A stretch of DNA of 64,000 bases from the sequence record MT446420.1. One strand, written 5' to 3'. Origin of the DNA: Escherichia virus TH54. This document shows positions 3,381 to 54,707 of the stretch, one piece after another. Position 1 is the first letter of the stretch. Each line of letters begins with the position of its first letter. The translations under genes were made by a program, and so were the position numbers. Under the pieces are notes generated by a model. It searched no databases. It was not told where the DNA came from and worked only from the letters and a program-made list of their open reading frames with translations.

Positions 3381-3575
3381 ATAGTCGGAGATAAAAATCC
3401 CTGGCTCTTCATTGTTAAAATATTCAATCGCGGCCATACGTTTCCGAATAAGATTCAGTTCCAGCAAAACGTAATTACCCTGCACGACGATAGTTGGATT
3501 ATCTTCGAAAAATTCAACCGCGTCCTGAATACCATAGATAAGATTATCTAAATCTTCTTTATGTACCTTATACAT
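3330..3575 (-). CDS. hypothetical protein
   Basis: 81 aa; C-terminus encoded inside the tandem repeat. Confidence 0.5.
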   Translation of the reverse strand: MYKVHKEDLDNLIYGIQDAVEFFEDNPTIVVQGNYVLLELNLIRKRMAAIEYFNNEEPGIFISDYVAGEIQKLKEMCDGCW

Positions 3576-4896
3576 AATATGCGTCGTACCTCGCTCGTGT
3601 GATTCCTACATAAGCCAACTGGCTCGCTAATGAAGCTTCGGCCATATGGATGCATGGAGTATAGATGAATGCTTTGTCCACTGAAACGCCCTGTGCCTTA
3701 TGGATTGTACTGACCGGAAGAGCACGAACTTTCAAGAAGGTCCTGCGCGCTTTCCAGAAGTCTTTCCACTCTGGACGTTTACCAGCGGCTTTCATCTGTT
3801 TGTATGTGTCAGCAACTTTCGCCAGATATGCCTGGAATTTTGGTTGCTGGTCTTCTGGTAAAACTTTAATGCGGTCAACCTGATATTCTTCATCTTCATC
3901 AATTGACTCAACTTCCAGGTCCCAGTAATTAATCACTAACTGGTGCGATTCACCTTTACAACGGAGAATGGTGGAAGTGTATTTGCAATCCTTGATGCGA
4001 ACCAACTGACCATTATTAAAAATAATTTCGCTGAATTTCTTTCCTTCAAATTCCAGCTCTTTCATGTGCGGCTCTTGCATAACCAGGACTTCATACAGTA
4101 AAAATGCTTTATCCGTTTCATATAGCTTGCGACGAATAATATTATTCAGTTTTTCAACTGATTTATTCGTGTACGCATACATCCTGTTTTCCATCAGCAT
4201 ATCAGCATCTTTTACAATACTGAAATAGTTTATCATGAAATCCTTTAAAGCGGTTTGTGAGGTGAAACCTTGTACGCCATGACCTTCATACATACAGTCA
4301 CGGAACCAACCCCCATTACGAATTTCTGTCGCCACTTCAATGATAGGAGCATTGCTTCGCATGACCTCAGTCAAATGAATCTGTTTGAACTTAGGATGCG
4401 TAAAGAATGGGCTTATCTTTTGTTGTGTGCTTCCTGGGTCAACTGGCTGCAGCTGGTGCATATCACCAATCCCAAGAATAGTACACCATTCAGGAACAGA
4501 GTTAAGAATAATCTTAAACAGAGACCCGTCATACATACTTGCTTCATCACAAACCAGAACATTGCATTTTGACATGTCAGGCATTTCGCGCTGTTCAAAA
4601 ACGTTTTGGTCTTCATACGTAGTCGGGTTAATCTTTAGGATACTATGGATTGTATTCGCTGTTTGACCAGACAATTTAGATAAAACTTTTTTCGCCTGGT
4701 GAGTTGGTGCAGCGAGCACAATTCCCATAACTCCATTTCGCACCAGATGGTCAATGACAAATTTTGTCAGAGTAGTCTTACCTGTGCCAGCTGGACCATT
4801 CAGAGTGATACATTCCCCTGAACGTCGCTGAATAGCTTCAGTGATATAATCAAAAGCTTCTTTTTGTCCTGTGTTCAAGTCTTCAAATTTAATCAT
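3568..4896 (-). CDS. dda: Dda-like SF1 DNA helicase
   Basis: 442 aa; Walker A GPAGTGKTT; overall resemblance to T4 Dda; synteny. Confidence 0.9.
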   Translation of the reverse strand: MIKFEDLNTGQKEAFDYITEAIQRRSGECITLNGPAGTGKTTLTKFVIDHLVRNGVMGIVLAAPTHQAKKVLSKLSGQTANTIHSILKINPTTYEDQNVFEQREMPDMSKCNVLVCDEASMYDGSLFKIILNSVPEWCTILGIGDMHQLQPVDPGSTQQKISPFFTHPKFKQIHLTEVMRSNAPIIEVATEIRNGGWFRDCMYEGHGVQGFTSQTALKDFMINYFSIVKDADMLMENRMYAYTNKSVEKLNNIIRRKLYETDKAFLLYEVLVMQEPHMKELEFEGKKFSEIIFNNGQLVRIKDCKYTSTILRCKGESHQLVINYWDLEVESIDEDEEYQVDRIKVLPEDQQPKFQAYLAKVADTYKQMKAAGKRPEWKDFWKARRTFLKVRALPVSTIHKAQGVSVDKAFIYTPCIHMAEASLASQLAYVGITRARYDAYYV

Positions 4897-5192
4897 GCCA
4901 ATTTTACTCGCTTAACATATAAAGTATCTAAAATTAATTTCAGTTCGCGGACACGTTCTTCAGTAGGAAAAACAGTTTTTGTTTCCCACTTGTTGAACCA
5001 CCATTTTCTGGGAGTACACCGTGTTTCTATACGTCCCATACTTAAATATCTTTTTGTATTATATAAATAGCCAGCCATTTCATAATCTGCGACAGCTTTT
5101 GTGGTGTATAAGGTCACCTTTCCATCATACTCTAATGGGTGTTCAAAACCATCTTTATCTTTGTGAACCAGTGCATATGCGTAGTACATCAC
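4893..5192 (-). CDS. hypothetical protein
   Basis: 99 aa ORF overlapping dda start by 4 nt. Confidence 0.5.
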   Translation of the reverse strand: MMYYAYALVHKDKDGFEHPLEYDGKVTLYTTKAVADYEMAGYLYNTKRYLSMGRIETRCTPRKWWFNKWETKTVFPTEERVRELKLILDTLYVKRVKLA

Positions 5193-11729: not shown

Positions 11730-11898
11730 CCGAAGGACCATTATACTGTAGGTTTATCGTCTTTATTCTTACGCTTTTTTGATGGGATTTGTTCAGGGCC
11801 TTTATTGACAACTGCTCCGGAAGTGGTACCTGTTGCGATATTAGTTGGGTTTCCACCTGCATCACCGGCAACCATATCTTCGTTGATAAAATCTTTGA
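11730..11898 (-). CDS. small hypothetical protein with internal-protein-like N-terminus
   Basis: Hand translation MKTFKDFINEDMVAGD...; not in track (under 60 aa). Confidence 0.3.
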
Positions 11899-11927
11899 AT
11901 GTTTTCATAACACCCCCTTTCCGCTAT

Positions 11928-12119
11928 TTATACAACGAAGATAGCTTTATCACCATTTGCATCAGTCACTTCATAAGTGTCTTCATGATACAACGGAATA
12001 ATCCAGGTAACACCATCATCAGCGATAACATGGATTGCTTCTTGGTCTTGCGACACGATTTCATATTCTTCAAAAATCTGGAAGACCGAAATCTTAGAGC
12101 CCGTACACATTGCACTCAT
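11928..12119 (-). CDS. hypothetical protein
   Basis: 63 aa acidic ORF. Confidence 0.35.
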   Translation of the reverse strand: MSAMCTGSKISVFQIFEEYEIVSQDQEAIHVIADDGVTWIIPLYHEDTYEVTDANGDKAIFVV

Positions 12120-16391: not shown

Positions 16392-16720
16392 CTCTTTTTC
16401 ATTTTAATCTTATCAATTTCATCTTGTATTTGCATTGTAACACACTTTTCTACATGCACTGCAAGCTCCGCTTTGCGGTCTTCAGAAGGGGTGCCGAAAT
16501 CAACTGAAACTTTTCCAGATGGTTCAATTTTAATTCCGGTTACGTACACGATGTGATTGGACCCATCAGGGAGTGATAACAGAATTTCCTGTCGCACAGT
16601 TCCCATGGATTGCCGGATAATCTCCAAACTTTTTTCGTAGTAAGGTACAGAAGGAGCCTTAGCTCCCTCCGCATCTTTCTCGAAATTATCTAAATCAGAT
16701 AAATCGATATCATTCATCAA
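16376..16720 (-). CDS. 40: gp40-like protein
   Basis: 114 aa between 41 and uvsX as in T4; size match. Confidence 0.6.
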   Translation of the reverse strand: MMNDIDLSDLDNFEKDAEGAKAPSVPYYEKSLEIIRQSMGTVRQEILLSLPDGSNHIVYVTGIKIEPSGKVSVDFGTPSEDRKAELAVHVEKCVTMQIQDEIDKIKMKKRWWKW

Positions 16721-17888
16721 GGTCTTCCATCATATCTAAATCGTTTTCGATATCTGCTGCAGATGGTTTTGCCTTACCTTCAGGAGCAGAGTATTTTTCA
16801 ACCTTGGAGGCAATAAGCGCATCAACTTCGGCATCAACAACAGCATTGCTATCAATTGCACCCAGCTGGTAATGACGTTTGATTGCGTCACGGAAAGGTT
16901 CGTGCTTGAACAACGGACCCCAGAATTCAGTACAGTTAGTATCTTTTGCACGCCATGATTTTTCTTCGCGGACCATTTCACCGGTCTCAACATCAAGATA
17001 TTCACGGTTATACCAACCAACTTTCGGTTTCACTACAAATCCGATTTCCATTGCCATATCAAGCAGGCCAGAATATGGGTCAATACCACCATCGAATTTT
17101 ACATCAATGAAGAATTTACTTTTCTCTTTGACCATACGAGATTTTTCGGCATTCAGAACAAATTGGAAACCTTCAAGTTCTTTACCAGTTTCTTTAATCT
17201 GGCGTTTGCCGATAATGAATACGGTGTCCGCAGAATACATAACACCTGTACCACCGGTCATAACGGTTTTGCTATACATCTCAATCGTCTCGATTGTATG
17301 GTTAACCGCGACACAAGGAATATCCTTGATACTAAAATATGGGGTAACAATACGGAACAGAGATTTCAGGGATTTAGCACGAGTCATATCGCCAACGACT
17401 TTTTCGTTCATCGCATCTTCTGTTTCTTTTTTTGACGCCATGTTACCGATTGAGTCAATAAAGATAATGACTTTTTCACCACGCTCAATTGCTTCAAGCT
17501 GGTTAACCATATCAACTTTCAATTGTTCAACCGACTGGATTGGTGTGTGGATAACACGCTCCGGGTCTACTTTCATTGCACGCAGATAGGCTTCTGTGAT
17601 ACCAAATTCTGAATCATAGAACAAACAGATTGCTTCGGGGTATTTGTTCATATATGCAGAGACCATCGTTAAACCCATATTGGATTTAAAGTGTTTTGAC
17701 GGACCAGCAAAAATAGTCAAACCTGACTGCATACCACCATCTAGTGCACCGCTGATTGCAATGTTCAGCATCGGGATTTTTGTACGAACTACATCTTTAT
17801 CATTAAAAAACTTGGACTTAGTAAGAGTCGCAGTCATTTTGGATGTAGAAGCTTTAATCAAACGGGATTTCAAATCTGCAATAGACAT
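16710..17888 (-). CDS. uvsX: RecA-like recombinase UvsX
   Basis: 392 aa; DLKSRLIKASTSK...GPSKHFKSN; strong resemblance to T4 UvsX. Confidence 0.92.
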   Translation of the reverse strand: MSIADLKSRLIKASTSKMTATLTKSKFFNDKDVVRTKIPMLNIAISGALDGGMQSGLTIFAGPSKHFKSNMGLTMVSAYMNKYPEAICLFYDSEFGITEAYLRAMKVDPERVIHTPIQSVEQLKVDMVNQLEAIERGEKVIIFIDSIGNMASKKETEDAMNEKVVGDMTRAKSLKSLFRIVTPYFSIKDIPCVAVNHTIETIEMYSKTVMTGGTGVMYSADTVFIIGKRQIKETGKELEGFQFVLNAEKSRMVKEKSKFFIDVKFDGGIDPYSGLLDMAMEIGFVVKPKVGWYNREYLDVETGEMVREEKSWRAKDTNCTEFWGPLFKHEPFRDAIKRHYQLGAIDSNAVVDAEVDALIASKVEKYSAPEGKAKPSAADIENDLDMMEDLDE

Positions 17889-17973
17889 TCATTTTTTCCA
17901 TAGGCACCATTATATTTTTCTCACAGGTTTAAGATAGGATAATTATATCACTGTATTTTTAGAGCAATTAATG

Positions 17974-18477
17974 TTAGTTAATACCTTGGCGGGCTTTCTC
18001 TTTAGCCACACATTTATTAATATAGCTCAGACGATTTTGAGCAGACCGCTGATACATATCGCGATACTCATTGGCTTTTGGAGAACCCGTCTCCGCTGCC
18101 TGATAAGCTTCCGCGCGTATGATGTTTATCTGCATATTGATGTATGACATGCAGACCTGTGAAATCTGGTTAACAGTATCCAAGTCATTTTGTCGCTTAG
18201 TTTCTGCTTCCAGCTTGGCAATGATTTCGTCATGCTTTGCAGCTTGCTCGCGTTTGTACTCAATTTCTTGTTGAGCATATTTTGCGCAGTTGTTTCCACA
18301 TTGATTGTTGTCGCGTTTGTAGATAAGTCCAGTACCACCTTTGAAATCAAAGGAACCATTATGCACCTGACGGTCTGCAGCAATTCGCGCTTTACCAATT
18401 TCACTGACATTAACTACATCGCCCTGGTAAGCACAACCAGATAGCAGCATAACAGCTGCGATAGCTAACTTTTTCAT
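17974..18477 (-). CDS. lipoprotein (signal peptide plus lipobox LLSGC)
   Basis: Start trimmed to ATG after GAGGAAAA (MKKLAIAAVMLLSGCAYQ); sits where T4 has beta-gt and 42. Confidence 0.6.
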   Translation of the reverse strand: MKKLAIAAVMLLSGCAYQGDVVNVSEIGKARIAADRQVHNGSFDFKGGTGLIYKRDNNQCGNNCAKYAQQEIEYKREQAAKHDEIIAKLEAETKRQNDLDTVNQISQVCMSYINMQINIIRAEAYQAAETGSPKANEYRDMYQRSAQNRLSYINKCVAKEKARQGIN

Positions 18478-18627
18478 TGTATTTTCCTCAATTAAAACAT
18501 TCATAGCGAGCTTGGAGCCCCAAAAATACCCAACCCAAAATTAAAGTTGGAATCATATGCGGAGTCATTATTGCCCAATAGATTGACATACTAAAAAATG
18601 CAATCAGTATAATAATTGTAATTATCT

Positions 18628-18870
18628 TCATTTGGTTTCCTTGATGATAATTACTTGTGCGTTTGATTTACGCTCAGCAACGAGTGCCCAGATAAATGCA
18701 ATAAACCATCCGACCATTGTCCAACCTAACAGGAGGTTAACAAAGAAGATTCCGCAATTACTTTTGGTTCCTCGCAGTAGTGCGATAATCCACGGCAGAA
18801 AATATGCCAGTGCAGCCAGGAAGAAAGAGCCAGCACCCAGAACAACAGTACCCGCAATTAATGTTTCCAT
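18628..18870 (-). CDS. imm: Imm-like membrane protein
   Basis: 80 aa, two TM helices, immediately before gene 43 as in T4. Confidence 0.65.
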   Translation of the reverse strand: METLIAGTVVLGAGSFFLAALAYFLPWIIALLRGTKSNCGIFFVNLLLGWTMVGWFIAFIWALVAERKSNAQVIIIKETK

Positions 18871-18907
18871 TTTAATATCCTTAAGTTATTCATCAGTTGA
18901 TGGAGTA

Positions 18908-18937
18908 ATCATACGGCAGTCCTTTGCCGTTGTAAAC
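18908..18937 (-). promoter_or_regulatory. early-type sigma70 promoter
   Basis: Reverse complement GTTTACA-N16-GTATGAT; overlaps the 3' end of gene 43. Confidence 0.45.
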
Positions 18938-18939
18938 AC

Positions 18940-21654
18940 TTAAAAGTCAAACATATCAAAAAGAGATGCTTTTTTCTCGTAATCAACCTTAGCTGCTTCA
19001 GAGAACCCTGTCAATGGCTTAACAAAAGTCTTCTGGAACAGTGTGTTGTAGTCCATCCACTGCAAGACTTGGTCACGAATTTCAATCGGGAGTTCAATCC
19101 CTGATGGCCACGCAATCACGGTTTCGCCAAACGGGTTACCAACTTTAAGAGGAAGCACATACACCTTTTCCCCTTCCATGATTTGTGGAACAGTCTTCAG
19201 CCCTTTGGTTGCACGCATGTAAGCAAGCACGCCTTTGATATGAGCCGGACACTTAAATCCAGGGAAACCACCCTCATTATATTTCTGGATGTTGTTAACC
19301 GATGATACACCTGCGATGGTCATGTAATTAAGCTCATTAAATTCCTTGTTGAATTCCTTGAAGTACGTCTGCAGAGATTCTTCACCTTCTTGCAACATAC
19401 GGCGGATACATTCTTTCAGAGCTTTCTGACATGCTTTTGGTGTGCTCGACTTTTGAGTTTCCAGACCCATGATTTTCAGTTTCGGAACAGCATATCGTGT
19501 GCCTTCCATATCGTACACGTTCAGAGCATAACGCTTCTTCGCCGTCCAGAATCCACCAACACCTTTAGAACCAAGTGGAGGACATGCAATCGCTTCACGG
19601 TCCATAAACATAAGGTGCTGTTTGTTGTTCATGTATTCAGCTAGTTCACGGAAAGCTTTATCGATTGCCGGTTCCAAACGGTCTTTCGCGAACTTGTCCA
19701 TGAAGTCAACCAGGTGGTTTGTATCGCGGAATTTAGATTCGCCACCAACCTTTTTAATCAGGTTATCGCACTGGATATAAATGGAGTCAGTATCGCCATA
19801 GAATACATATGTTTCACCACTTGTACCACAAACACTATCAAAATATTCGTTAACTTTACGCTCAATCCACTGCAATGCAAGTTGCCCGAAAGATGTAATC
19901 GCGGTTGCATTTCGCAGGTCAAAGTAACGGAACCAGATATTACCCAGAGCACCATAACAACTGTTGATAAGCAGTTTACGGTTAATCTGTGCGGTCATGC
20001 CTGCGACTTCTTCCATCTGCGCTTTGTACAACATACCATTCAGAACTGTTTGATTCAGACCGTGCAAGGTTGTTTTCATATTGTCATCGAAGTCATAACG
20101 ATAATCAACTTCAGGCTCGGTTGTACCAGTTCCTGGATTACGCAGGGCTTCCTTAATCAGTTCACCATTACGTTGAGCCGCAAGCATATAACCTTTGTGC
20201 TCTTTACGCTGATTAAACACCTTGGTGACTTCTGTTGGAATAATACCCGCAACATCTTTAAAATACATCATACCGTTTGGAGCACAACTAAATGTATCAG
20301 ATGGACGGTCAGCAGTTCCTGCAATGTATTCATACATCGGCGCTGGTGCAAATGACCCGGCAATCGTTTCTGGACTGATGTTAATCTGTCGGATGATGCT
20401 CGGATACAGAGATGTTAAGTCACAGCTCATAACGTATTTGTATGCGTTCGGAATAGGTTCCTTAACAAATGCACCTGGGAACGATTGACGAACATGCGAT
20501 TTGGTTTCCGGAATGACTTTGTTTTGAGTCTTCAGGCTGTTAAAGATAATCGCATCCCAAGTTTTGATTGGGCTGAATACAGACTGAATCTGCATTTTTG
20601 CGTAATAACCCATTGACTGGCTAAGGTTAATAAACTGGCGCTTACGGTCAATCTGTACAACACGATAAACATCGATGATGTTATAAGAAATATACCGTTG
20701 GTGATTTGATTCACGCAGTTTAGAAATCGGACCATCATATGGGAGTTTACCAACACCCAGCTCAGATTCCGCAACATAATCCAACGAATAAGATGGCTGG
20801 TTTGTGAAGCTGAACTTTTTATACAGGTCCAGATAATCCAGAACAGAGATACCCAGAATCTGAATGATTTCTTGTTCTTCACCGAATCCGTTGTTAATGA
20901 CCTTAACTTTTGTACGACGATGTGGACTCAGACGTTTTGCTGTAGCTTCACCAAACACATTTTTAAGGCGGTTGTAGATATATGGAATATCAAACTTCTC
21001 GATGTTCCAACCAGTTAACATAACCGGAGTTTTCTCGTTCCAGAATACCAAATACTGCTGGAGCATTTCTTCTTCTGAATCGAAAGCCATATAAACAATT
21101 TTTTCCAGGATTTCTTCAGGGACTTCATCGCCGCCATCTTCTTGCAGCTTAGCAGCAATATCGATAGACCATTGCTCCACAGTGGCGTATGGTGAGCTCA
21201 AAAGGTCAAAGACATAGAATTTATCGTCTACCGAATCATAGTGCGTCAGGGCATCAATAGGGTGACGTGCTTCAGACGGCTCAGGGAACCCATCAGGAGA
21301 TGTCACCTCGATATCGAAGTTAGCCACACGGATTTTACTTGAATCGTATTTGATTTCGTGCGGGTAACGGTCGGACAAGTATGCGAGTTTAAAGTCATCC
21401 ATACCCATAGCTTCGAGACCCATGTCATTCATTCGCTTCATCCACTGGGATGCATCACGCATGGAGTCGAATTCTTTTTTCACACAACCTTTATTATAGA
21501 TGTCTGTATACTTTGCAGCCTGGTCTTCGCGGGCATGCATAAACAAGCATGGAGCATAAGGGATTTCACGAACACGTTCATGACCGTTCTTGTCAATGTA
21601 TCGTTCGAGTAGATTGTCACCGATTTGTTCGATAGTTAAATAAAATTCTTGCAT
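18940..21654 (-). CDS. 43: family B DNA polymerase
   Basis: 904 aa; exonuclease motifs and polymerase motif YGDTDS; collinear resemblance to T4 gp43. Confidence 0.95.
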   Translation of the reverse strand: MQEFYLTIEQIGDNLLERYIDKNGHERVREIPYAPCLFMHAREDQAAKYTDIYNKGCVKKEFDSMRDASQWMKRMNDMGLEAMGMDDFKLAYLSDRYPHEIKYDSSKIRVANFDIEVTSPDGFPEPSEARHPIDALTHYDSVDDKFYVFDLLSSPYATVEQWSIDIAAKLQEDGGDEVPEEILEKIVYMAFDSEEEMLQQYLVFWNEKTPVMLTGWNIEKFDIPYIYNRLKNVFGEATAKRLSPHRRTKVKVINNGFGEEQEIIQILGISVLDYLDLYKKFSFTNQPSYSLDYVAESELGVGKLPYDGPISKLRESNHQRYISYNIIDVYRVVQIDRKRQFINLSQSMGYYAKMQIQSVFSPIKTWDAIIFNSLKTQNKVIPETKSHVRQSFPGAFVKEPIPNAYKYVMSCDLTSLYPSIIRQINISPETIAGSFAPAPMYEYIAGTADRPSDTFSCAPNGMMYFKDVAGIIPTEVTKVFNQRKEHKGYMLAAQRNGELIKEALRNPGTGTTEPEVDYRYDFDDNMKTTLHGLNQTVLNGMLYKAQMEEVAGMTAQINRKLLINSCYGALGNIWFRYFDLRNATAITSFGQLALQWIERKVNEYFDSVCGTSGETYVFYGDTDSIYIQCDNLIKKVGGESKFRDTNHLVDFMDKFAKDRLEPAIDKAFRELAEYMNNKQHLMFMDREAIACPPLGSKGVGGFWTAKKRYALNVYDMEGTRYAVPKLKIMGLETQKSSTPKACQKALKECIRRMLQEGEESLQTYFKEFNKEFNELNYMTIAGVSSVNNIQKYNEGGFPGFKCPAHIKGVLAYMRATKGLKTVPQIMEGEKVYVLPLKVGNPFGETVIAWPSGIELPIEIRDQVLQWMDYNTLFQKTFVKPLTGFSEAAKVDYEKKASLFDMFDF

Positions 21655-52255: not shown

Positions 52256-52532
52256 TAATTAATCGCACATCCTGGTCATACGTCAGGAGGCTACGAGTTA
52301 TAATACCCTTACATGGTCCAGAAATAAATTCCAGGGTAAAGTAAGGAACCAACTTCATCAAGCGAATACTCGGAGCAGTGCAACGAAATCTGGACCCAAT
52401 AAAAGGTCCAGACAAAAACACATACTCAAAGAAATTTGCTTTATTAAAGATTTCAAAATTCTTTACGAAATCTTCTGACCTAACCTTTGGAATAAAATAG
52501 ATTTGGTCAAAAAGCTCTTCATGGGTCATCAT
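52233..52532 (-). CDS. hypothetical protein
   Basis: 99 aa. Confidence 0.4.
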   Translation of the reverse strand: MMTHEELFDQIYFIPKVRSEDFVKNFEIFNKANFFEYVFLSGPFIGSRFRCTAPSIRLMKLVPYFTLEFISGPCKGIITRSLLTYDQDVRLISDWKKYV

Positions 52533-53074
52533 TGCATTCCTATCACAAAGAACAGTGGACGTGTGGTTTGATTGGTTTCTTCACATGATGCACGACAGCA
52601 ATGTTGCACCACCTTTATATGGGCATCGTAAATTTTATCCATATCCGGTGTTTTAATAGGTTCATCAATTATATACAGAATACGTGAAAGTGATAATCCA
52701 CGGAATTTGCATGCAGTATTACCAATAAAACTACGAACAGAATCAGTGTACAAACGATACTTAATACTTTCTGTATGGTTATTAAAATATTCCTTTCTGA
52801 TTGCAGTAGCCGAAACATTAGCATATGCCGTGTTATTAGACAAAATAACAATAGAACCGCCATCAGCTAACCATTCCGTAGCAAAAATGGATACCGCTTT
52901 AGTTTTACCGGATTGGCGCCCGCCATCAAGTTTTAAGGTGCAGCATTCTTTAAACAGGGTTTGTGAATCGGGTACATAAAACCCACTATTACAAATGTGT
53001 TCTACTCTAGCATCAGAATGGTTTGCAAAAGCATTCATCAGGGATAGATAACTACCGGTTAAAAACGTTTTCAT
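52529..53074 (-). CDS. P-loop NTPase-like protein
   Basis: Walker A-like GGRQSGKT and Walker B-like ILYIIDE. Confidence 0.5.
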   Translation of the reverse strand: MKTFLTGSYLSLMNAFANHSDARVEHICNSGFYVPDSQTLFKECCTLKLDGGRQSGKTKAVSIFATEWLADGGSIVILSNNTAYANVSATAIRKEYFNNHTESIKYRLYTDSVRSFIGNTACKFRGLSLSRILYIIDEPIKTPDMDKIYDAHIKVVQHCCRASCEETNQTTRPLFFVIGMQ

Positions 53075-53238
53075 AATTGTCTCTTTTTAAGTTGTGGGCC
53101 GTTCCTTGGCACATTAATTCATCCATGTATCCGAATGTAAACCCCTTACCGCACTCGGGCTCGACCTTATTACAGGTAGGGAAAGGTCCATCACTCAGAG
53201 GACGCGACGTTCATGAGGAGAGGGTCGGTTTGCCTTTA

Positions 53239-53538
53239 TTAAAAAGAACCAGAGCCTTTAATTGTGTTCTGGCGACCTTTATTTTCTAATTCAGAATGGT
53301 CGATTTCGTATGCTTGTGCTACACCAAAGGCCTTTTTAACTTTAGCTAAAGAACCTTTAGATGTAACAATATTAAAAGTATTACCTTTAGTAAAATCAAC
53401 CAAATCCACTTGTACACCCTGTTTACCGAGGCTTGCTACAATAGCATCAACATATTGTTGGTCTAAATTACCCTGAACCCCAATTTGAAATGCTTTAGGA
53501 GCTTTGACTTCAGTAATAAATTCTTGATAAGTTTTCAT
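53239..53538 (-). CDS. internal protein (capsid-targeting N-terminus MKTYQEFITE)
   Basis: 99 aa; conserved N-terminal 10 aa shared with the next two genes. Confidence 0.7.
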   Translation of the reverse strand: MKTYQEFITEVKAPKAFQIGVQGNLDQQYVDAIVASLGKQGVQVDLVDFTKGNTFNIVTSKGSLAKVKKAFGVAQAYEIDHSELENKGRQNTIKGSGSF

Positions 53539-53561
53539 TTATTCGCTCCAAGTTGATAGGA

Positions 53562-53593
53562 TAATTATACACTATCCCATCATAAAGTAAACA
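53562..53593 (-). promoter_or_regulatory. early-type sigma70 promoter
   Basis: Reverse complement GTTTACT-N16-TGTATAATTAT. Confidence 0.45.
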
Positions 53594-53594
53594 G

Positions 53595-53858
53595 TTATGC
53601 TTTACCGCCAGAAACAATACCAAAGGTCTCAAAGTCCCATTCAATATCGTCAACATCAACTTTCTTACCAGCAACCACGAATGCGATTTCGCGACGTTTT
53701 GCATAGGTGACAATTTCTTTACCATCACCACCAAAGAAAGAATAACCATTGCGCTTCATGGTGCCAAAGTCTTCAGCATCACCGGCGAAGGCGCGGACTT
53801 TAAAAGCACCGGTAGGAGCTTTAGCAGATTCAGTAATAAATTCTTGATAAGTTTTCAT
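53595..53858 (-). CDS. internal protein (MKTYQEFITE N-terminus)
   Basis: 87 aa. Confidence 0.7.
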   Translation of the reverse strand: MKTYQEFITESAKAPTGAFKVRAFAGDAEDFGTMKRNGYSFFGGDGKEIVTYAKRREIAFVVAGKKVDVDDIEWDFETFGIVSGGKA

Positions 53859-53871
53859 AATGTCTCTTTAA

Positions 53872-54186
53872 TTACTCTTTAGGGAAATCACGCAAAAATG
53901 CATCATAAAGTTTATTACCAATGCGACGGAATGCTTTTGCCGCATGAACGTTATCCGGATTTGCAATTTTAATCTGCATTACATGACTACCAGCCCATGA
54001 TTTGGCTTCATCATAATAGCCTTTAATTTCTTTAATAGTCTTACGTTTTCCACCAGGGCCATCAACAGTAATTTTCCACGAACCCGTGCTCGTTTCACTT
54101 GGTGGGGTTAATTGTTCAATCCAGACATAACCACCTTCAACACGTTTTTGGGTAGATTCAGTAATAAATTCTTGATAAGTTTTCAT
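53872..54186 (-). CDS. internal protein (MKTYQEFITE N-terminus)
   Basis: Track ORF trimmed to the conserved MKTYQEFITE start. Confidence 0.65.
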   Translation of the reverse strand: MKTYQEFITESTQKRVEGGYVWIEQLTPPSETSTGSWKITVDGPGGKRKTIKEIKGYYDEAKSWAGSHVMQIKIANPDNVHAAKAFRRIGNKLYDAFLRDFPKE

Positions 54187-54215
54187 TTTATATTCCATTG
54201 TTTGGTTGATAAAAT

Positions 54216-54246
54216 CATTATACAACCTTTTTAGTTAAGCGTACAC
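54216..54246 (-). promoter_or_regulatory. early-type sigma70 promoter upstream of the internal-protein cassette
   Basis: Reverse complement GTGTACG-N15-TGTATAATGAT. Confidence 0.45.
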
Positions 54247-54651
54247 AGCTTTCCCATAGTATTTGTACCAGGTAGGCTTTTGAGAAATTTTCTCATTCAG
54301 TCTGGCTTGACTGATTTCAATTGACCAGATTGATGGTTGATAATCATTTTTCCATTCATCAGGAATATCACTTAAATCTTGGGTAGAAATATCTTTTATG
54401 TTAAACCCTCGCTTTAAACATTCTGCAATAAGTTCTTGATGACGGTTTTTAAGGAACAAAAGTTTATCATAAAAGAAGGTAACATGACCAGTCCCTAAAA
54501 GAAAAGATGATGGGATTTTAAAGTCAGAAACCTTTTTACCATTTTGCACATGCTTACGAACAGCACCAAACACGCGAGGAAGTTCACGATATTCAGCCAT
54601 AAGATGTTGGTCAGCGAGTTCAGATACCAGGGTTAAATTAATGCGAGTCAT
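54235..54651 (-). CDS. denV: endonuclease V (pyrimidine-dimer DNA glycosylase)
   Basis: 138 aa; [29 protein letters not shown] close to T4 DenV. Confidence 0.9.
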
Positions 54652-54676
54652 GTTTGTTCTCCGTAGTTGATAGGGT

Positions 54677-54707
54677 CATTATAACCCTATCATTTGGAGA
54701 TGTACAC
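54677..54707 (-). promoter_or_regulatory. early-type sigma70 promoter
   Basis: Reverse complement GTGTACA-N16-TTATAATGA. Confidence 0.45.

Follow-up and report, generated by a model that had tools for sequence, protein, structure and literature searches.

A common internal protein (IP) signal in front of variable bodies has been on record since 1994. Repoila et al. reportedly described in that year a polymorphic set of IPs including Ip7 (from phage T2) and Ip10 (from phage Pol), and the idea that IPs are shuffled is also attributed to these authors. In phage T4, propeptides of 10 to 19 residues direct the IPs to the prohead core; once gp21 has cut these off, the mature proteins leave the head together with the DNA (PMC9026906; PMC3012670). 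The first 10 residues of IPIII are enough for encapsidation, where targeting depends on residues 4 and 7 and processing on residues 8 and 10 (PMC9026906). T4 Ip1, Ip2 and Ip3 each inhibit one type IV restriction enzyme of the GmrSD family, without cross-protection (PMC12373910). When Silas et al. assayed ip4 to ip10, with T-even alleles of ip7 and ip10, none of 15 GmrSD variants was reproducibly inhibited (PMC12373910). T4-like phages also carry PeSL elements (Arbiol 2010; Comeau 2014), which are promoter/stem-loop repeats (PMC4122927), a sigma-70-like early promoter and the stem-loop beside it recurring at the borders of indels.

The stretch analysed here (the window) comprises 64,000 nucleotides from a Gaprivervirus (Straboviridae, Tevenvirinae). 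It includes three tandem genes, all on the minus strand, each of which opens with MKTYQEFITE, as a preliminary description of this DNA had claimed and as the ORF translations bear out. The first gene (53239..53538) belongs to the Ip7 family and encodes 99 aa (predicted mature form 89 aa, pI 9.3). The middle gene (53595..53858), of the RB69 ORF125c/VR7ORF127c family, encodes 87 aa (predicted mature form 77 aa, pI 6.2). The third (53872..54186) is a member of the Ip10 family and encodes 104 aa counted from the signal Met (predicted mature form 94 aa, pI 9.6); its longest ORF opens ahead of this Met, at a TTG at 54225. The gene denV (54235-54651) adjoins the leader on the Ip10 side, and the end coordinate originally given for the cassette, 54246, lies 12 nt inside denV. 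At each gene start the DNA itself is repeated. The block of about 30 nt that had been noticed there (ATGAAAACTTATCAAGAATTTATTACTGAA) is found in exactly three copies, with 0 mismatches, in the 64 kb, where shuffled sequences (n=100) lead one to expect 0.00. As 33-nt direct repeats on the minus strand, the copies at the start of the Ip7-like (53506..53538), middle (53826..53858) and Ip10-like (54154..54186) genes are 91 to 100% identical and lie 320 and 328 nt apart.

Phage CJ20 shows 98% identity to this locus, Shigella phage SP18 96% and vB_EcoM_VR7 94%, and these relatives carry the three genes under the annotations ip7, 'internal head protein' and ip10. In VR7 the orthologs are annotated as ip7 (gp126), as an 'internal head protein' similar to RB69 ORF125c (gp127) and as ip10 (gp128), flanked by vs.8 on one side and by denV, e and nudE on the other. 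The Ip10-like protein is present in the protein database as 'Ip10 [Shigella phage SP18]', with 100% identity over the query, and also matches phrog_3966 (PHROGs); the Ip7-like protein matches phrog_2667, 'internal head protein', at 6e-42. Clearly, the cassette is real, the accepted interpretation of such genes is essentially right and the genes are already annotated in public genomes: this is no new kind of system. The novelty implied at first does not hold, since the families are already named and ip4 to ip10 have already been assayed against GmrSD variants.

The signal of the three proteins differs from that of T4 IPII and IPIII (MKTYQEFIAE) by a single change, A9T, and is therefore identical at nine of ten positions. 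All the mapped signal positions are kept in the three proteins: Y4 and F7 (targeting) and I8 and E10 (processing). The gp21 cleavage motif, (I/L)-x-E, can be recognised in the sequence of all three just before the predicted mature body, as I8-T9-E10. If the T4 pathway operates here, MKTYQEFITE would dock each protein on the prohead scaffolding core and the gp21 prohead protease would cleave after Glu10, at the I-T-E motif. The freed bodies, of 77 to 94 residues, would remain among the DNA in the head, their copy number probably lying in the tens to hundreds, and would be ejected into the cell along with the genome. The best-supported reading of these sequences is that all three products are packaged, cleaved behind Glu10 and injected. 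The proposal that a capsid-targeting N-terminus is carried here by divergent bodies that are candidates for anti-defence activity has good support from homology (the nine of ten signal residues, the IP hotspot and the ip7/ip10 annotation); its anti-defence part stands by analogy only.

The organisation of the locus can be compared with that of T4. Genes of the IP class are located in the denV/e or 57B hotspot, and the genes described here lie in the former, between vs.8 and denV. The gene order in the window is vs.8, Ip7, middle gene, Ip10, denV, e, nudE and that in T4 is vs.8, denV, ipII, ipIII, e, nudE, with ipI adjoining 57B. Comparison of these orders indicates that the IP genes here fill the opposite side of denV: the slot between vs.8 and denV rather than that between denV and e. 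In CJ20 and MN01 both slots are occupied, with an IpII ortholog (94% identical to T4 IpII) between denV and e, and this ortholog is missing from the same slot of the window. VR7 has a second IP locus beside 57B, comprising ip6, an ORF125c-like paralog and ip9. The end of the window is equivalent to VR7 position 65,657, and the second VR7 locus starts about 2.2 kb further. A contrast had been drawn between T4, with its IP genes split, and this phage, with its IP genes together. This fails, because T4 ipII and ipIII also sit together beside denV and VR7 has a second locus. The organisation in two loci is shared with T4, and the differences are confined to the slot and the gene content. The 64-kb window contains no tRNA gene and, with the exception of a gp61.1-like ORF, no further ORF with an IP signal.

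This gp61.1 ortholog (11741-11908, minus strand) begins MKTFKDFINE; T4 gp61.1 begins MKTFKEFIKE. The start resembles the IPII/III and IPI propeptides, and the I-x-E motif at positions 8-10 is kept. The gene is preceded by a late-promoter motif, TATAAATA (11925-11932, minus strand), one of only four in the window. Judged by its N-terminus, gp61.1 may be an unrecognised capsid-targeted peptide.

Beyond the N-terminus, the three bodies are unrelated, as first described, but the shared part is longer in one pair: the Ip7-like and middle proteins have about 20 N-terminal residues in common (MKTYQEFITE-x-KAP-x-AF), not 10. In BLASTP among the three, the alignments are confined to residues 1-10, 1-13 and 1-21, and once the first 10 residues are taken away no pair reaches an E value better than 0.5. 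Profile-profile comparison of the family alignments aligns only 12 to 19 N-terminal columns. The 99-aa and 87-aa proteins are both full-length matches to phrog_2667 and were considered as distant homologs; this was rejected, the hhalign similarity being confined to the first 19 to 21 residues, and phrog_2667 is therefore a mixed cluster. Against T4 IpI, IpII and IpIII, none of the three mature bodies gave a BLASTP match better than E=0.5, so that the close orthology to T4 IPII or IPIII that would have counted against the original proposal is not found in the bodies. Scans of the three proteins with Pfam, NCBIfam and PADLOC returned no match above threshold, and searches of PDB sequences with the three family profiles returned none at E<0.1.

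The families are nevertheless well represented among phages. Using the mature bodies as queries, tblastn matched 283 (Ip7-like), 205 (middle) and 189 (Ip10-like) phage records, from phages of Escherichia, Shigella, Salmonella, Klebsiella and Enterobacter, with identities from about 42% to 100%. Within gapriverviruses the Ip7-like body keeps 96 to 100% identity, a figure that falls to about 47% in Tequatrovirus. When the Ip10 body was used for an exhaustive HMMER search, 1.8 billion representatives yielded just one 50%-identity cluster at E<1e-10, which indicates a narrow, phage-restricted family. This search also gave weak matches, judged uninformative, to proteins with beta-rich repeats; one of them was to a module thrice repeated in an RTX protein (38% identity over 55 aa).

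Structure prediction of the Ip7-like and Ip10-like proteins was uninformative, the models offering no functional clue. The AF2 model of the Ip7-like protein (pLDDT 71) has a predicted beta-alpha-beta-beta-alpha-beta fold with a C-terminal helix and a disordered signal peptide. Its only significant match in BFVD is 'Ip7 protein, phage MX01' (48% identity, E 2e-10). Foldseek searches of the PDB with this model gave only generic ferredoxin/ACT/HMA-like matches with E>4e-3, none below E 1e-3. The Ip10-like model was set aside (pLDDT 52).

The composition of the bodies bears on what they might do once packaged. They could be mainly structural or charge-neutralising head components, aiding core assembly or DNA condensation/ejection, rather than inhibitors of defence. 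Two of the three predicted mature proteins are basic (pI 9.3 and 9.6), as such a role would suggest, and in T4 the IP lysines touch DNA phosphates (PMC3012670), the IPs co-purify with the scaffold protein gp22 at about 300 copies of each (PMC9026906), and loss of IPIII halves the head-assembly rate and the burst size (PMC9026906). However, the middle protein is near neutral (pI 6.2), unrelated bodies are hard to reconcile with a common structural role, single genes are freely lost in close relatives, which carry from one to three, and all three T4 IPs have specific anti-restriction targets (PMC12373910). We therefore consider a mainly structural role unlikely. By analogy with the T4 proteins, each of the three probably neutralises a specific host defence.

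Gene content was compared across eleven gapriverviruses. The slot between vs.8 and denV holds one to three IP genes in five combinations (Ip7, middle and Ip10; Ip7 and Ip10; middle and Ip10; Ip7 and middle; and Ip7 or middle alone). The slot between denV and e holds zero or one (nothing, IpII or a member of a fifth family). In these eleven phages the genes are thus both dispensable and polymorphic among close relatives, as is characteristic of the IP class.

The way in which genes are lost is visible in two relatives. In VR26 and TH40, which are without the middle gene, the missing segment runs from the N-terminal coding block of this gene to the equivalent position in Ip7. The crossover points differ: that of TH40 lies within the signal codons and that of VR26 a few codons later, leaving VR26 with a chimeric Ip7 N-terminus (MKTYQEFITESAKVPKAF). 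Since two independent deletion junctions fall inside the repeat, the signal-coding block is also a recombination site and, at the level of sequence comparison, a demonstrated recombination substrate. What is new here is direct evidence, from sequence, that crossover within the signal-coding repeat underlies IP gain and loss, and the VR26 and TH40 junctions give sequence-level support to the idea of IP shuffling, as ascribed to Repoila et al. in 1994 and taken up in the PeSL papers. Concerted evolution of the signal DNA was considered and rejected. In a tally that excluded the window sequence, paralogs within a genome differed on average by 2.33 mismatches per 30 nt and orthologs between genomes by 0.84; because paralogs differ more than orthologs, there is no general homogenisation of the signal DNA. 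The three-way identity of the signal DNA in CJ20 and in the window is lineage-specific.

A second constant sequence was identified by alignment of the upstream regions. This leader of about 45 to 48 nt (54187..54234, minus strand), which includes GTATAAT and TATCAAC, stands before whichever IP gene comes first after denV: Ip10 in VR7, CJ20, TH40, VR26 and UPEC01, the middle gene in TH44, TH15 and phage 212, and Ip7 in MN01 and RZ. The signal block, along with the conserved leader/promoter before it, acts as a portable homology patch, and with single IP genes gained and lost by recombination inside this block the locus behaves as a shuffling cassette array.

The cassette had also been described as lying behind an early promoter. 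Promoter-like sites of T4 early type do occur before Ip7, denV and Ip10, those of denV and Ip10 being called weaker. The site upstream of the Ip7-like gene (TTTACT, 16 nt spacer, TATAAT; 53564..53591, minus strand) lies in the 56-nt spacer, scored 10/12 in the promoter scan as a consensus match only, and fits the T4/PST PeSL consensus TTTACW-N17-TAYWAT (PMC4122927). The site upstream of denV (TGTACA, 17 nt spacer, TATAAT; 54678..54706, minus strand) also scored 10/12 and is probably the early promoter that was meant. The claim thus stands as a match at the level of the consensus, but the scan gave 9 sites against 9.0 expected by chance, with no enrichment over shuffles. The canonical late promoter, TATAAATA, is not found upstream of the cassette in the window, and expression at the time of prohead assembly must therefore use other promoters.

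These observations bear on a further explanation, in which the common N-terminus merely reflects recombination at a repeated leader, and the genes encode ordinary early proteins of the cytoplasm that never enter the head. Early-type promoter-like sites upstream of the genes, with no late promoter nearby, would agree with this, and the repeat does mediate recombination. Yet the peptide is kept across genera despite synonymous differences (ACT/ACA/ACG and ATT/ATC), which argues for selection on the signal residues themselves, and in T4 the first 10 residues alone give encapsidation (PMC9026906). An origin of the signal as a mere by-product is, in our judgement, very improbable. The reading that we prefer is that the genes form a cassette of the T4-type IP class in the denV-side hotspot, whose products would be targeted, processed and injected, each inhibiting a host defence, and whose array is shuffled through the signal block. 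We give this a probability of roughly 0.65.

For the targets of these injected proteins, T4 Ip1, Ip2 and Ip3 suggest by analogy a type IV modification-dependent nuclease. On a weaker line of argument, each body might be dedicated to the stoichiometric inhibition of a single variant of a host defence directed against incoming modified DNA. The modification may not be the one found in T4. Gapriverviruses have been reported to be without dCMP hydroxymethylase while retaining dCTPase, denA, denB and alc (PMC8056088, PMC12115623), a combination that implies an uncharacterised base. In the 64-kb window, tblastn with T4 gp42 and beta-gt gave no match, and the syntenic site between uvsX and imm/43 is occupied by a lipoprotein-like ORF and a small membrane ORF instead of gp42/beta-gt. 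In a genus without dCMP hydroxymethylase, enzymes that depend on glucosyl-hmC may not be the relevant threat.

The proteins could accordingly be injected anti-defence proteins with targets other than glucosyl-hmC-dependent GmrSD enzymes, for example enzymes that read the gaprivervirus base or defences unrelated to modification. The retention of dCTPase, denA, denB and alc in a genus without gp42, the absence of gp42/beta-gt from the syntenic site and the lack of reproducible activity of ip4 to ip10 against the 15 GmrSD variants all point in this direction. On the other hand, these 15 variants are a small part of GmrSD diversity, and all three families are found at 47 to 75% identity in Tequatrovirus, Mosigvirus and other hmC phages, so that they are not specific to the unusual base. 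Because the genus is without the hmC pathway and ip7 and ip10 were inactive against the 15 variants, we put forward, tentatively and as the less probable case, that at least one of the three injected proteins may neutralise a different kind of defence from the GmrSD enzymes blocked by T4 Ip1, Ip2 and Ip3. If true, this would widen the target range of the 'first-strike' proteins delivered by the signal.

On its vs.8 side the cassette abuts a conserved, covarying structured RNA of about 145 nt (53092-53238, minus strand). The 164-nt stretch from the Ip7 stop to the vs.8 start is conserved in 962 phage records across genera of Tevenvirinae, with 72 to 99% identity among the matches listed. In Tegunavirus and Roskildevirus it directly precedes vs.8. 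In T4 it is found inside the annotated first 38 or so codons of vs.8 (blastn against NC_000866), and in three metagenomic phages the element is directly upstream of an IP gene, not vs.8. In the window the stretch has stops in all three sense frames, and close relatives differ in it by 1-nt indels that rule out a coding function for both strands. Two candidate genes were rejected: a plus-strand ORF of 70 aa (53077-53289), which contains such 1-nt indels, and a decayed vs.6 (GrcA-like) gene, since blastn against NC_000866 assigns the match to the 5' end of vs.8 as annotated.

Lineages differ in this RNA by wholesale compensatory changes in its helices. Helix P0 occurs as GGGAA/UUCCC (T4), GGGAG/CUCCC, GGGG/CCCC, GGAAC/GUUCC, UGAGG/CCUCA and, in the gaprivervirus type, AAAGG/CCUUU. 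Helix P1 occurs as CCUCAUG/UAUGAGG, CACAU/AUGUG and CUACG/CGUAG, and two lineages have lost both partners of one C-G pair of P1. The 3' hairpin occurs as GCCA/UGGC, CCAG/CUGG and GCUGG/CCAGC. The core is a three-way junction, GCC-A-[ACCU GUAAYA AGGU]-[CGAGC N4 GYGCG]-GUAAU-GGU. A covariance model built on six T4-type sequences gives exactly one strong match in each T4-like locus searched, that in the window being 53092-53238 on the minus strand (65 bits, E 1e-12). In the alignment, which is fitted to this model, 91.5% of cells pair (81% in shuffles and 31 to 50% with slid partners). Changes on both sides are seen in 21 of the 27 pairs of this same model-fitted alignment, against 7.6 in shuffles, none of 500 of which reaches 21. 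Single-sequence MFE z-scores of the RNA are unremarkable and an Rfam search with it gave no match even at E<=10. Eighteen exact matches to the core in bacterial genomes were dismissed as being at chance level, none being scored by the covariance model. This looks like a new RNA family, for which a cis-regulatory leader of the downstream gene and a processed small RNA are the candidate roles.

The cassette is a textbook case of T4-like phages delivering ready-made anti-defence proteins with their DNA and swapping them among relatives, and it can be placed beside four known systems. With T4 IPII and IPIII it shares the signal (MKTYQEFIAE there, MKTYQEFITE here), the vs.8-to-e hotspot and small, mostly basic products encoded in tandem on one strand. 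It differs in that the bodies have no detectable similarity and in that the T4 genes lie between denV and e, not between vs.8 and denV. T4 IPI*, a GmrSD inhibitor whose structure has been solved by NMR, is the functional paradigm of the class, a small capsid-targeted, gp21-processed and injected protein, properties that are predicted for the proteins described here. IPI, however, has a 19-residue propeptide (MKTFKEFTSTTTPVSTITE), is encoded at the 57B locus and has no sequence similarity to the proteins described here. As with PeSL elements, short repeated sequences accompany variable genes in hyperplastic regions and mediate indels; PeSL elements are regulatory sequences that flank such genes, whereas the crossovers mapped here are in a coding repeat, which takes in the signal and a few codons after it, and not in the promoter. 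Finally, in comparison with Ip7 of T2 and Ip10 of Pol in the polymorphic IP set, there is no essential difference: the genes described here are direct members of these families, that is, alleles.

The 'intergenic' stretch between the stop codon of Ip7, the lowest-coordinate gene of the minus-strand internal-protein (IP) cassette, and the start of vs.8 contains a candidate structured RNA (53092-53238, minus strand). This conserved element is about 125 to 147 nt long; 962 phage records spanning the Tevenvirinae contain it, each genome with a single copy. Rfam has no entry for it, and a search for bacterial instances returned none. A protein-coding reading of the region was ruled out because of stop codons and 1-nt indels. 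Pairing in P0, P1, Px and the 3' hairpin is kept despite complete sequence swaps between lineages. In an alignment fitted to the model, double-sided changes occur in 21 of the 27 pairs and 91.5% of cells are paired, compared with 31 to 50% in slid controls. The element may act as a leader for vs.8 or be a small RNA. An IP gene follows it directly in three metagenomic phages.

The T4 counterpart occupies positions 2816-2940 of the T4 locus that we compared (around 64,815-64,939 of NC_000866). As annotated in T4, vs.8 has its start codon and approximately its first 38 codons within this conserved RNA element. Since the start conserved across genera is located downstream of it (MRTFLTG in T4, MKTFLTG in the window), the N-terminal extension of T4 vs.8 is probably an annotation artefact. 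The window vs.8 (52529-53074, minus strand) encodes 181 aa and belongs to phrog_1488 (function unknown). It shows a weak match to PF03237, the N-terminal ATPase domain of the T4-type large terminase (E 8.5e-5), whose score of 22.7 bits is barely over the Pfam cut-off of 22 bits. Matches to AAA domains are also weak. The protein may be a small P-loop NTPase.

Neither gp42 (dCMP hydroxymethylase) nor a beta-glucosyltransferase was found at the syntenic site between uvsX and gene 43 (16710-18940) or elsewhere in the 64 kb. Their place is occupied by a lipoprotein-like ORF of 176 aa (17974-18504), and a 47-aa membrane ORF is also present at this site. This agrees with reports that Gaprivervirus is without an hmC (hydroxymethylcytosine) enzyme, while dCTPase, denA, denB and alc are retained. 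Absence of the enzyme together with retention of these functions implies that Gaprivervirus DNA has an as yet unidentified base.

The body of Ip10, the third cassette gene (53875-54156, minus strand), resembles a module that is present three times in P0029, an RTX-repeat protein of 596 aa in the metagenome library (38% identity over 55 residues, E 6.6e-6 library-wide). The similarity may reflect a common small beta-rich fold or an effect of composition.

The gp61.1 ortholog (11741-11908, minus strand; 55 aa; phrog_1823, function unknown) begins MKTFKDFINE, compared with MKTFKEFIKE in T4 gp61.1. This signal-like N-terminus includes an I-x-E motif at positions 8-10 and is followed by a lysine-rich low-complexity tail. 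The window carries only four TATAAATA late-promoter motifs, one of which (11925-11932, minus strand) lies 16 nt upstream of this gene. The product may be an unrecognised capsid-targeted peptide.

The slot between denV and e is an empty 55-nt spacer in the window (54652-54706). In two other gapriverviruses, TH44 and phage 212, it holds a fifth IP family (MKTYQEFLAESVLNE...). In some others, including CJ20 (4709-5011 of its locus) and MN01 (3499-3801 of its locus), it is occupied by an IpII ortholog that is 94% identical to the internal protein IpII of T4.
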